A stretch of DNA of 7,431 nucleotides from Escherichia coli (GTDB lineage Bacteria; Pseudomonadota; Gammaproteobacteria; Enterobacterales; Enterobacteriaceae), in assembly GCF_003334305.1 (NCBI RefSeq), contig NZ_QOWS01000047.1; one strand, 5' to 3'. This document shows, piece by piece, positions 4,101 through 6,774 of this stretch (position 1 is its first letter; each line of letters starts with the position of its first letter). The notes under the pieces are model-generated. The model saw only the letters and a list, made by a program, of their open reading frames with translations. It ran no database searches and had not been told where the DNA came from. The translations under genes were made by a program, and so were the position numbers.

Positions 4101-5515
4101 TCCTCTACAGCCGGGATGCCGCAGGCCGCCTGGCAGAGGTCATCACGCCGGAAGGCAAAACACAGTATGCGTATGACAAATCCGGCAGGCTGACGGGTAT
4201 CTTCAGCCCGGACGGCACATCACAGCGCACCGGCTACGACGAACGCGGGCGGGTGAATGTCACCACTCAGGGCCGACGGGCCATTGAATACCACTACCCC
4301 GATGAACACACCGTTATCCGCTGTATCCTGCCACCGGAAGATGAACGCGACAGACACCCCGATGAATCCCTGCTGAAAACCACGTACCGTTATAACGCCG
4401 CCGGAGAACTGACGGAGGTCATTCTGCCGGGGGATGAGACGCTGACGTTCAGCCGTGATGAGGCGGGACGTGAAGTGTTCCGGCACAGTAACCGGGGTTT
4501 TGCCTGTGAGCAGGGCTGGAATGCAGCCAGCCAGCTTGTCACCCAGCGCGCCGGATTTTTCCCGGAGGAAACCACATGGGGCGGGCTGCTCCCCTCACTG
4601 GTACGGGAGTACCGTTACGACAGCGCGCGCAATGTGTCGGCTGTCACCAGCCGGGAAGATTACGGACGGGAAACACGGCGGGAGTACCGGCTGGACCGGA
4701 ACGGTCAGGTCACGGCGGTGACAGCCTCAGGCACCGGGCTGGGCTATGGCGAAGGCGACGAGTCCTATGGCTATGACAGTTGTGGCTACCTGAAGGCGCA
4801 GTCTGCGGGCAGGCACCGGATAAGTGAAGAGACTGACCAGTATGCCGGAGGCCACCGGCTGAAACAGGCCGGAAACACGCAGTATGACTATGACGCCGCA
4901 GGCCGGATGGTCAGCCGCACCAGACACCGTGACGGCTACCGCCCGGAAACAGAGCGGTTCCGGTGGGACAGCCGTGACCAGCTGACCGGGTATTGCAGCG
5001 CACAGGGTGAGCAGTGGGAATACCGCCACGACGCCAGCGGCAGACGAACAGAGAAACGCTGCGACCGGAAGAAAATCCGCTTCACGTACCTGTGGGACGG
5101 CGACAGTATTGCGGAAATCCGGGAATACCGCGATGATAAACTGTACAGCGTACGGCACCTGGTGTTTAACAGCTTTGAGCTGATAAGCCAGCAGTTCAGC
5201 CGGGTACGGCAGCCGCATCCGTCCGTGGCCCCGCAGTGGGTGACGCGGACGAATCATGCGGTGAGCGACCTGACGGGCCGTCCGCTGATGCTCTTTAACA
5301 GTGAAGGTAAAACCGTCTGGCGACCGGGCAGACCAGCCTGTGGGGGCTGGCACTCAGCCTGCCCGCAGACACCGGCTACCCGGACCCGCGCGGGGAACTG
5401 GACCCGGAAGCCGACCCCGGCCTGCTGTATGCGGGGCAGTGGCGGGATGCGGAATCGGGGCTGTGCTATAACCGGTTCCGGTATTACGAGCCGGAGAGCG
5501 GGATGTACCTGGTGA
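1190..5515 (+). CDS. Rhs-family T6SS effector (prePAAR, TM region 1, PAAR, TM region 2, YD-repeat shell), as-read ORF of 1441 aa; the 3' end is disrupted by a frameshift near 5320-5328, so the last ~64 codons of this ORF are out-of-frame read-through
   Basis: ATG at 1190 with GAGGGA 6 nt upstream. The translation carries a prePAAR motif (AARLGDEIQH), hydrophobic helices, PAAR motifs (NINGKPAAR, FINNQPAARKGDKLEC) and many YD repeats (YRYDERGLL, YYYDPDGN, YAYDKSGRL, YDYDAAGRM and others). After ...LMLFNSEGKTVW the frame-2 translation becomes R/G/C-rich nonsense (RPGRPACGGWHSACPQTPATRTR), while frame 1 carries the conserved Rhs core end. Confidence 0.9.
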   Translation: MSEGPGGPQGATAGGTLAMRMLSQQAMVASQMKRAANDKAIAQMLAAKKSGPPAARLGDEIQHKSFLGALAGAVLGAIVTIAEGCLIMAACATGPYALVLVPALMYASYKASDYVEEKQNQLESWINSFCDTDGAINTGSENVNINGKPAARAAVTLPPPPPPGAIPEVPQGEPSWGDIATDLLESAAEKAVPLAKAWGNAVITLTDSNAGFMDRLCAGTSLLFPAGPVLMEFATMVGGRGEIKKDVDFPEAGEDTALCDKENKPPRIAQGSSNVFINNQPAARKGDKLECSAAIVEGSPDVFIGGEQVTYLDIQPEFPPWQRMILGGITIASYLLPPAGLLGKLGNLAKLGKLGNLLGKSGKLLGAKLGALLSRTKNALKNTYNVLKKFIKDPVDPVTGAYCDERTDFTLGQTLPLSFTRFHCSVLPLHGLTGVGWSDSWSEYAWVREQGKRVDIISLGATLNFAFDGESDTAVNPYHAQYILRRRDDYLELFDRDALSSRFFYDAFPGMRLRHPVTDDTSDDRLAHSPADRMYMLGGMSDTASNRITFERDSQYRITGVSHTDGIRLKLTYHASGYLKAIHRTDNGIQTLATYEQDARGRLTEADARLDYHLFYEYDAADRIIRWSDNDQTWSRFTYDEQGRCVTVTGAEGYYNATLDYGDGCTTLTDGKGTHRYYYDPDGNILREEAPDGSTTTYEWDEFHHLLARHSPAGRVEKFEYNAAHGQLSRYTAADGAEWQYRYDERGLLSNITDPAGQTWTQQCDERGLPVSLVSPQGEETRLAYTAQGLLSGIFRQDERRLGIEYDHHNRPETLTDVMGREHHTEYSGHDLPVKMRGPGGQSVRLQWQQHHKLSGIERAGTGAEGFRYDRHGNLLAYTDGNGVVWTMEYGPFDLPVARTDGEGHRWQYRYDKDTLQLTEVINPQGESYLYVLDNCGRVTEERDWGGVVWRYRYDADGLCTARVNGLEETILYSRDAAGRLAEVITPEGKTQYAYDKSGRLTGIFSPDGTSQRTGYDERGRVNVTTQGRRAIEYHYPDEHTVIRCILPPEDERDRHPDESLLKTTYRYNAAGELTEVILPGDETLTFSRDEAGREVFRHSNRGFACEQGWNAASQLVTQRAGFFPEETTWGGLLPSLVREYRYDSARNVSAVTSREDYGRETRREYRLDRNGQVTAVTASGTGLGYGEGDESYGYDSCGYLKAQSAGRHRISEETDQYAGGHRLKQAGNTQYDYDAAGRMVSRTRHRDGYRPETERFRWDSRDQLTGYCSAQGEQWEYRHDASGRRTEKRCDRKKIRFTYLWDGDSIAEIREYRDDKLYSVRHLVFNSFELISQQFSRVRQPHPSVAPQWVTRTNHAVSDLTGRPLMLFNSEGKTVWRPGRPACGGWHSACPQTPATRTRAGNWTRKPTPACCMRGSGGMRNRGCAITGSGITSRRAGCTW
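1349..1378 (+). other. prePAAR motif (AARxxDxxxH) in the Rhs N-terminus
   Basis: Codons gcc gcc agg ctg ggc gat gaa att cag cat give AARLGDEIQH, followed immediately by a hydrophobic segment. Confidence 0.75.
1385..1516 (+). other. Predicted N-terminal transmembrane region 1 of the Rhs effector
   Basis: Hydrophobic, Gly/Ala-rich stretch FLGALAGAVLGAIVTIAEGCLIMAACATGPYALVLVPALMYASY, judged by eye. Confidence 0.6.
1604..2116 (+). other. PAAR region, apparently split by a ~115-aa insertion with a Pro6 stretch (1661-1678)
   Basis: PAAR-like motifs GSENVNINGKPAARAAV (1604-1654) and AQGSSNVFINNQPAARKGDKLECSAAIVEGSPDVFIGGEQV (1994-2116), separated by TLPPPPPPGAIPEVPQGEPSWGD... through ...KENKPPRI. 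Confidence 0.7.
2210..2308 (+). repeat. Degenerate short tandem repeat (unit about gaaactggg) encoding a Lys-Leu-Gly-rich tract within predicted TM region 2
   Basis: DNA ctgggaaaactggggaatctggcgaaactgggcaaactgggaaacctgctggggaaaagcgggaagctgctgggtgcaaaactcggc encodes LLGKLGNLAKLGKLGNLLGKSGKLLGAKLGALL. Confidence 0.6.
2390..5320 (+). other. Rhs YD-repeat shell region (approximate bounds)
   Basis: Recurrent YD-type repeats throughout the translation, including YEYDAADRI, FTYDEQGRC, YRYDKDTLQL, YRYDADGL, TGYDERGRV, YRYNAAGEL and YRHDASGRR. Confidence 0.8.
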
Positions 5516-5706
5516 GTGATCCACTGGGGTTGCAGGGAGGGGAGCAGACTTACCGGTATGTGCCGAATCCTTTAAGATGGATAGATCCCTTAGGATTAAA
5601 TAAAGGAGCTTCATTATCTAAAATGATGAATAGCTCCAGTGATCTCATGGGGTTGAGAAGGCAGCCCCAGAACTTCTGGCGGCTATATCGCGGAAAAGAC
5701 ATTTAA
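5311..5706 (+). other. Frame-shifted 3' continuation of the Rhs gene (frame 1): conserved Rhs core end with two DPLGL motifs, then only ~34 codons before TAA at 5704-5706
   Basis: Frame 1 is open from 5311, just after a TAA at 5308-5310. It reads ...GQTSLWGLALSLPADTGYPDPRGELDPEADPGLLYAGQWRDAESGLCYNRFRYYEPESGMYLVSDPLGLQGGEQTYRYVPNPLRWIDPLGL, the typical end of an Rhs core. The upstream body is in frame 2, so a 1-bp deficit lies within about 5320-5328 (the ccggg run). Confidence 0.8.
5569..5598 (+). other. PxxxxDPxGL motif (PLRWIDPLGL) marking the Rhs core / C-terminal toxin boundary; an earlier DPLGL is at 5518-5532
   Basis: Frame-1 codons cct tta aga tgg ata gat ccc tta gga tta. Codon usage turns AT-rich from about 5560. 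Confidence 0.85.
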
Positions 5707-5738
5707 TAATAGCATTACCAGGCTCAGATGAATTCAGA

Positions 5739-6286: not shown

Positions 6287-6572
6287 TCCAATATGTAGAA
6301 CGGGACAATACCCATCTTTTAACAATGAACTTCGTAATTTTTATCTTAGAAATAATGCTACATTATATGAGGTATATCATGAGGTAAAAAATGTTAACAA
6401 GGGAGTTGGCCTGGTGGGAGATAATGGTATCGTCCTGGTAATTAGAAGTTCCAATTCCAAAAATACACTTGAGGAATTTCATGAATTCTTTGGAAACTTC
6501 AAACCTAATAATTCAACAGCTCGAGTTGAAGTGATTGATCAATCCGTTTTAGAACCTTTTTGGAGATTTTAA
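6276..6572 (+). CDS. Probable 3' segment of the same gene as 5999-6286, in frame 3 (98 codons open, no plausible start codon of its own)
   Basis: Frame 3 opens right after a TAA at 6273-6275 and runs to TAA at 6570-6572 in AT-rich DNA. It translates to a soluble-looking sequence (KKINPICRTGQYPSFNNELRNFYLRNNATLYEVYHEVKNVNKGVGLVGDNGIVLVIRSSNSKNTLEEFHEFFGNFKPNNSTARVEVIDQSVLEPFWRF). Its stop lies 4 nt before the next ATG (6577). A one-base change in the A7 tract fuses it to 5999-6286, giving about 190 aa. Confidence 0.55.
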   Translation, partial: KKINPICRTGQYPSFNNELRNFYLRNNATLYEVYHEVKNVNKGVGLVGDNGIVLVIRSSNSKNTLEEFHEFFGNFKPNNSTARVEVIDQSVLEPFWRF

Positions 6573-6576
6573 AAAT

Positions 6577-6774
6577 ATGATCACCAAATCAAGTATACTC
6601 ATAGAGTATAAAGATAAAAGTAAACTAACCGATAGTATTTATAAGTTTGTAAATGCTCTAGACATTGACTTTTCGATATTAAAATATGACTACTTTGATG
6701 TAAATGAGTATAAAAAAACATTACTTATGACACATCTTTTATTGACAAAGATGCAGAATATATTGAATTACTAG
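6577..6774 (+). CDS. Hypothetical protein (5' segment; reading frame interrupted at an A7 tract, 6712-6718)
   Basis: ATG at 6577 with GGAG about 13 nt upstream. The last ~18 codons of the as-read frame-1 ORF (after the A7 tract) look like out-of-frame read-through. Confidence 0.6.
   Translation: MITKSSILIEYKDKSKLTDSIYKFVNALDIDFSILKYDYFDVNEYKKTLLMTHLLLTKMQNILNY
6712..6718 (+). repeat. A7 homopolymer preceded by T (TAAAAAAA) at the frame break of the second downstream gene
   Basis: Seen directly: agta taaaaaaa cat. Frame 3 opens at the TAA formed by T plus the first two A. Confidence 0.9.

Follow-up and report, generated by a model that had tools for sequence, protein, structure and literature searches.

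Single-base deletions and a cassette boundary at the 3' end of an Escherichia coli vgrG-rhs effector locus

A stretch of 7,431 nucleotides of Escherichia coli DNA (assembly GCF_003334305.1, contig NZ_QOWS01000047.1; the whole stretch is hereafter called the window) carries an effector locus in which a long Rhs gene is followed by toxin and immunity cassettes, and over its last two kilobases the reading frame appears to break four times, each time at a homopolymer. The question raised by this locus is what such a cluster of breaks represents: errors of sequencing or assembly, an on/off switch, or the decay of the genes concerned. The initial annotation had described four single-base frame disruptions, with insertions and deletions mixed. 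Breaks 1, 2 and 4 are confirmed here, since homologs read through each of these sites, whereas break 3 is a cassette boundary; once it is removed, all the real lesions are one-nucleotide deletions and the argument from mixed directions fails. We consider, with a probability of roughly 90%, that the locus is under ordinary gene decay, that is, the fixed pseudogenisation of a disarmed effector and of a displaced toxin tip.

Frame breaks in the Rhs gene and its toxin tip

The first two breaks lie in the Rhs gene, one in the core and the other in the C-terminal tip. The features concerned are as follows:

1190-5706, + strand: prePAAR-PAAR-Rhs effector pseudogene with two frameshifts, one at 5326-5328 and the other at break 2, which truncates the tip (Pfam; named 'RHS repeat-associated core domain-containing protein' and 'frameshifted' by the Prokaryotic Genome Annotation Pipeline, PGAP)
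5326-5328, + strand: break 1, G3 against GGGG or GGGA in intact alleles, a 1-nt deletion (base-level comparison with loci L002, L004, L011, L014 and L016)
5584-5598, + strand: DPLGL, with which the demarcation motif of the Rhs core ends (PNPLRWIDPLGL), from the translation; the toxin tip runs from 5599
5599-5999, + strand: toxin-1, a putative C-terminal toxin domain of 133 amino acids (aa) when intact, split by break 2
5649-5652, + strand: break 2, G4 against G5 in the intact allele, a 1-nt deletion; the Rhs reading stops at 5704-5706
5739-5999, + strand: residual 86-aa open reading frame (ORF), WP_000889443.1, the C-terminal two thirds of toxin-1 from an internal Met (ORF list, PGAP and homolog alignment)

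The Rhs ORF extends from 1190 to 5515, but it departs from the conserved reading at CGACCGGGCAGACC and is nonsense past ...GKTVWRPG, and it is then frame 1 that carries the canonical end of the Rhs core, ...GQTSLWGLALSLPAD...PNPLRWIDPLGL, the conserved stretch being QTSLWGLALSLPADTGYPDPRGELDPEADPGLLYAGQWRDAESGLCYNRFRYYEPESGMYLVSDPLGLQGGEQTYRYVPNPLRWIDPLGL. Where the window has CCGGGCAG, other E. coli copies of the Rhs gene have CCGGGGCAG or CCGGGACAG, one base longer, and in two genomes with the longer allele PGAP annotates an intact coding sequence (CDS) of 4518 nt. Since the intact alleles are one base longer, break 1 is a 1-nt deletion at 5326-5328, as the initial annotation had proposed in calling this run one base short. 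It had also reported no break in the 5.3 kb that precede this site, and none was observed.

At break 2 both frames are open over 5643-5703, frame 1 of the window giving DLMG and frame 0 GVEKAAPELL. For the homolog search the two open frames were joined conceptually and the joined product was used as the query, which retrieved 97 proteins. Many of these come from outside E. coli (Agaribacter, Bordetella, metagenomes) and align as a single polypeptide with 55-70% identity over 87-99% of the query; the E. coli matches are all confined to the part corresponding to the 86-aa ORF. The homologs are continuous across the junction (...SS(D/E)LMGVE(R/K)A(S/A)PELL...), which places the lesion at the G4 run of 5649-5652, with G5 as the expected ancestral state. 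This G5 is found in E. coli SC406 (NZ_LR778140.1), where an intact Rhs gene of 4812 nt runs through the end of the toxin domain and is followed by gene A, described below. The earlier view of this junction as one base short is thus upheld by both SC406 and the homologs. The remark that the A7 run at 5931-5937 is undisrupted holds too: it is in frame and reads MIRHKKMLG, matching the homologs.

Repaired toxin-1 gave no significant match in Pfam, in NCBIfam or in a sequence-profile search of the Protein Data Bank (PDB), and Foldseek returned nothing significant against the PDB; the domain belongs to an uncharacterised family that is possibly zincin-like. The stop codon of the 86-aa fragment overlaps the start of gene A (ATGA, within GTGATGA at 5997-6001). 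Toxin and immunity genes that are coupled in translation are classically arranged with such an overlap.

Variation along the Rhs gene was also recorded. The Rhs core between 4011 and 5322 is 2-3% divergent between strains (compared with L003, L004 and L014), while the tip region, 5652-7106, is almost invariant, and in L003 break 1 is present as in the window but on another upstream core haplotype. The divergent core set against the near-invariant tip, together with the occurrence of break 1 on a second core haplotype, suggests recombination within the core and a recent spread of the tip. At position 5171 the window encodes S1328, where all six compared loci have G.

Gene A, the displaced toxin-2 tip and gene B

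The remaining two breaks had been assigned to two genes downstream of the toxin tip, and the region is here divided as follows:

5999-6286, + strand: gene A, WP_001021476.1, complete at 95 aa and the putative immunity gene for toxin-1 (homology and position)
6287-6385, + strand: spacer of 99 nt without a stop in frame 0, either by chance or because it is a relic
6386-6572, + strand: 5'-truncated orphan remnant of a second Rhs toxin tip (toxin-2), consisting of the last 62 codons and the stop, with no start codon and no core
6577-7052, + strand: gene B, the orphan immunity gene for toxin-2, now a pseudogene, 158 aa when intact
6712-6718, + strand: break 4, A7 where the intact allele has A8, a 1-nt deletion

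Break 3 had been placed at the A7 run of 6274-6280, on the understanding that gene A is broken there and continues beyond it. The run is in frame and lies just ahead of the native stop of gene A. Elsewhere, the position of gene A behind intact toxin-1 homologs is taken by small ORFs, one of 87 and one of 93 aa, and gene A aligns over its full length with the 93-aa ORF (27% identity, E 6.5e-7), the two having equivalent ends. No length variation was seen in the run: 29 of the 29 full-length rows sampled, out of 548 matches, span 91 nt, and A7 is present in all the spanning loci that were fetched. All the fetched loci that have gene A have it intact, in keeping with retained immunity. As gene A is complete and the frame-0 stretch past the A7 comes from a different cassette, break 3 is not a mutation but the point at which two cassettes meet, and what the initial annotation took for the 3' half of gene A is a truncated orphan toxin tip, paired with gene B.

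A longer gene A, of 190 aa, was considered and rejected. Its sole full-length match, a protein of 192 aa (P0098), hops between the three frames of the window (KRNKK..., GGEIMVSSS...) and, judging from its sequence, comes from a noisy record with several extra indels; all the other matches cover only the 95-aa N-terminal part. The 190-aa 'repaired gene A' had no significant Pfam match, and gene A itself matched nothing in NCBIfam. Alternative tails of gene A were rejected as well: the match of two metagenome contigs, L011 and L012, to the window stops at 6288, where they pass into a PrsA-like, Gram-positive-like lipoprotein gene, at about 2x coverage; they are probably chimeric assemblies and the source of spurious 149-aa 'gene A' proteins in the databases. 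Within gene A, the window has W83/S84 (6245-6250), a minority allele found in 84 genomes, and most of the others sampled have C83/A84.

The spacer has no stop in frame 0, and this created the illusion of a fused gene. At this base composition, a run of 36 open codons would arise by chance with a probability of about 0.04, and no relatives of 6287-6385 were found beyond the E. coli locus itself; the spacer may be left over from another cassette.

Past the spacer, residues 34-97 of the frame-0 stretch share 75-77% identity with the C-terminal ~62 residues of Rhs tips from Cronobacter and Superficieibacter. At the nucleotide level, positions 6386-7106 of the window are 98.5% identical to E. coli MS 69-1, where the corresponding sequence is the end of a full-length Rhs gene followed by an intact 158-aa gene B, and homologs of gene B begin 2-5 nt past toxin-2-like tips in MS 69-1, Cronobacter and Superficieibacter, the distance being 2-3 nt in the last two. 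On the strength of this homology, 6386-7052 is read as an orphan toxin tip with its immunity pseudogene.

With one A added, gene B encodes a protein of 158 aa that aligns end to end with intact proteins of 154-158 aa from E. coli, Enterobacter, Kosakonia, Cronobacter and Superficieibacter; NEYKKNI spans break 4 and the alignment has 59 invariant columns. The tract is A8 in MS 69-1, where the gene is intact, A7 in the window and A6 in ECCWS199, and one further record has the same 80-nt match length as ECCWS199. With A8 in the intact homologs, the earlier call of one missing base at this site holds. No significant Pfam match was obtained for repaired gene B or for toxin-2 (the best was CdiA_C for toxin-2, E 0.14), and NCBIfam returned nothing for gene B, toxin-2 or the chaperone encoded upstream of the Rhs gene. 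Near the 3' end of gene B there is an in-frame A8, at 7022-7029 (WVKKRRQ), absent from the initial annotation. This is the longest run of one base anywhere in the window, and here its length is the 'correct' one.

Distribution of the alleles and the origin of the breaks

Allele counts were obtained from 5,426 complete E. coli genomes, with queries short enough that at least 99% identity means an exact match. The window allele of break 1 is exact in 47 genomes (46 among the matches listed as full-length, 81 nt), and most of the other matches at this site are the 82-nt version, one base longer. Its carriers include human enterotoxigenic and Shiga toxin-producing E. coli (ETEC and STEC) and isolates from pig, cattle, chicken, orangutan, vampire bat, echidna and the environment, obtained by many laboratories. 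At break 2, the G4 allele is exact in 529 of 558 genomes, about 95% of the E. coli strains having the toxin-1 tip, and G5 is found in 16 genomes (16/559), 15 of which have a linked single-nucleotide polymorphism (SNP) within the 102-nt query. At break 4, A7 is exact in 487 of 568 genomes; A8 occurs in seven (7/568), all with a linked C>T and none on the local haplotype of the window. The linked SNPs on the haplotypes of intact length argue for single historical deletions and not for toggling.

Under the gene decay that we favour, a G5 to G4 deletion at 5649-5652 disabled toxin-1, giving the allele that now prevails among tip carriers, with the 95-aa immunity gene A staying intact. In a sub-lineage that includes this strain, a second 1-nt deletion, at 5326-5328, has broken the now useless Rhs shell, and the displaced cassette downstream, reduced to the last 62 codons of toxin-2 and gene B, has a fixed A8 to A7 deletion of its own, in gene B. 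We infer that the toxin was lost before the shell began to drift, because G4 predominates and break 1 occurs on a G4 background; the loss would reflect relaxed or negative selection on the toxin with immunity retained. The same Rhs gene carries other, independent lesions in other strains: nonsense codons (ECCWS199, MS 69-1), an IS3 insertion (UTAK-3, UTAK-18, UTME-13), an extra 1-nt deletion (504838) and the loss of the N-terminus (FCI51). A dN/dS test of the sequence after the frameshifts has no power, with 0-4 substitutions between haplotypes across 5652-7106. The decay of a redundant Rhs toxin/immunity module, which had been listed among the possible explanations, is the one that the evidence supports. 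The phenomenon is already known, and the Rhs frameshift is already flagged in RefSeq.

Three points weigh against this account. The G4 allele is common despite an almost complete lack of divergence in the tip, and neutral decay alone is insufficient to account for this. The functions of toxin-1 and gene A as toxin and immunity protein are putative, being drawn from their position and homology. Finally, strain FCI51 (L017) is identical to the window over 5014-7399, retaining breaks 1 and 4, save for G5 at 5649 and A7 in place of A8 at 7022-7029; a G5 on the window's own haplotype could be a reversion and so indicate some instability of the tract. Noise in the FCI51 assembly is as likely as a reversion or rare slippage, since the second difference is also one of homopolymer length and the sequences are otherwise identical.

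The frequency of G4 leads to the alternatives in which this allele is not a simple null. It could have been favoured by positive selection for cells that are 'disarmed but immune', or it could act as a leaky attenuator, with trace toxin made by a -1 slip on G-GGG, or with the 86-aa ORF and the ATGA-coupled gene A forming an internal toxin-antitoxin-like pair, as has been reported for a Salmonella Rhs protein (PMC7043789). We regard these as having a small chance of being right.

Recoding would likewise turn null alleles into attenuated ones: if ribosomes slipped by -1, with tRNA-Gly on G GGG at 5649-5652 or with tRNA-Lys on the A7, or if slippage took place during transcription, a little full-length toxin or gene B product would be made. 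A -1 shift would indeed correct both tip lesions, with perfect re-pairing on G-GGG and AAA-AAA, and the 3' part of toxin-1 and gene A are still open, with their ATGA overlap. However, neither site matches the canonical heptamer X XXY YYZ in its zero frame (the contexts are G GGG UUG and U AAA AAA), the RNA downstream of the breaks folds no better than shuffled sequence (z -0.41, +0.43 and -0.58), and no Shine-Dalgarno-like stimulator is evident upstream. Moreover, with break 1 upstream, the toxin could not be delivered in this strain, and further lesions accumulate in other strains, all of which makes recoding decidedly unlikely.

Phase variation by slipped-strand mispairing, in which toggling tract lengths would heritably switch the toxin and immunity genes on and off, had been suggested from the two T-A7 sites. 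Variants of the kind that it calls for do exist in E. coli (A6, A7 and A8 in the gene B tract, G4 and G5 in the toxin tract), and FCI51 has its G5 on the window's haplotype. Nevertheless, one of the two T-A7 sites (6274-6280) is not a frameshift and showed no variation in length among the records inspected, and at the other the A8 is never found on the haplotype of the window. The 'on' lengths of both variable tracts are rare and, with one exception, lie on SNP-marked haplotypes, and gene B, an orphan, has no promoter and lies behind a toxin fragment that is itself dead. Typical contingency loci have tracts much longer than those seen here. We therefore hold phase variation to be very improbable.

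Homopolymer length errors, the reading that the initial annotation had put first and one that would imply a true genome with intact ORFs, have next to no chance of being the explanation. All three lesions do lie in homopolymers, and noisy records exist (FCI51 differs only at two homopolymers, and the P0098 record has several local frame changes). Against this, exactly the window's tract lengths are found again in complete genomes that were assembled independently, 47, 529 and 487 of them for breaks 1, 2 and 4, and these come from many laboratories, countries, hosts, years and platforms. None of the tracts is long (G3-G5, A7-A8), and the same frameshift or truncated products are annotated by PGAP from one record to the next.

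The locus can thus serve as a calibration case, in which a cluster of homopolymer breaks resembling sequencing error or a phase switch was resolved, through several hundred genomes, into fixed pseudogenising deletions and one mis-joined gene model. For annotation, it points to WP_000889443.1, an 86-aa 'hypothetical protein', as a toxin fragment, to WP_001021476.1 as a likely immunity protein, and to the unannotated 6386-7052 as an orphan tip with an immunity pseudogene. The toxin-1 domain, as a member of an uncharacterised family, might merit study.

Gene order and comparison with known systems

Positions 5000-7100 of the window (2.1 kb) were used as the query and found to be 100% identical to E. 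coli strain A7 (NZ_CP028767.1), isolated from orangutan faeces. From 5' to 3' the locus consists of the 3' end of vgrG, a DcrB/Eag chaperone gene, the prePAAR-PAAR-Rhs effector gene, its toxin tip, the immunity gene, the truncated orphan toxin/immunity module and ISEc1. The features not listed above are:

1-681, + strand: 3' end of vgrG, encoding a type VI secretion system (T6SS) spike protein (PGAP on NZ_CP028767.1; ORF 7-681)
709-1170, + strand: intact gene for a DcrB/DUF1795 (Eag-type) effector chaperone of 153 aa (Pfam DcrB PF08786, E 1.7e-27; 'DcrB-related protein' in PGAP)
7251-7431, + strand: 5' part of the ISEc1 transposase gene (ISAs1 family, H-repeat; PGAP)

The large ORF has Pfam matches to prePAAR_I, PAAR_motif, DUF6531 and at least nine RHS_repeat units, and the prePAAR motif AARLGDEIQH (pattern AARxxDxxxH) is found at 1349-1378, aa 54-63. 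The GC content falls from 0.60 in the Rhs body to 0.30-0.39 past the DPLGL motif, as expected for a polymorphic toxin tip and immunity genes. The combination of vgrG, the DcrB/DUF1795 gene, the prePAAR, PAAR and Rhs domains and the drop in GC content identifies this as an effector locus of the vgrG-eag-rhs type, whose 3' end carries toxin/immunity cassettes. On NZ_CP028767.1, PGAP annotates two hypothetical proteins in the tip region (5739-5999 and 5999-6286), followed by about 1 kb without annotation. Likeness to other Rhs loci stops at 7106. In strain A7 the neighbouring nrfB (9657-11894 of locus L001, outside the window) is an annotated pseudogene with an internal stop.

The locus resembles class I prePAAR Rhs T6SS effectors with Eag (DUF1795/DcrB) chaperones in having vgrG upstream, a chaperone of the DcrB family, the AARLGDEIQH motif, PAAR, DUF6531 and RHS repeats, and also in its core ending of PxxxxDPxGL, the low-GC polymorphic C-terminal toxin and the small immunity ORF downstream. 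It differs from them in that the effector is here a pseudogene, frameshifted in both the core and the toxin, and in that the toxin domain has no Pfam, NCBIfam or PDB family match. With simple-sequence contingency loci and programmed slippage sites it shares lesions in mononucleotide runs, where a change of a single base restores the frame; it differs from these in its short tracts, in the lack of stimulatory elements, and in that the intact lengths, FCI51 excepted, lie on haplotypes with linked SNPs instead of being scattered among close relatives.

The toxin-2 tip and gene B, lastly, recall the displaced or 'orphan' Rhs C-terminal tips with immunity genes that have been described before (Jackson et al. 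2009, PMC2935791; Poole et al. 2011, PMC3150448; Koskiniemi et al. 2014, PMC3967940). The orphan of Salmonella LT2 retains core-encoding sequence that permits recombination with the main rhs gene (PMC3967940), whereas here the homology to toxin-2 begins at 6386, within the toxin domain, no core homology is present and the immunity gene has a frameshift of its own; with only the last 62 codons left, reactivation of the toxin-2 orphan by recombination looks impossible. Displaced rhs tips are known to degenerate through frameshifts and stop codons (PMC2935791), and the locus illustrates a pattern common in interbacterial weaponry, in which the toxin is lost, immunity is kept and displaced tips decay in place.

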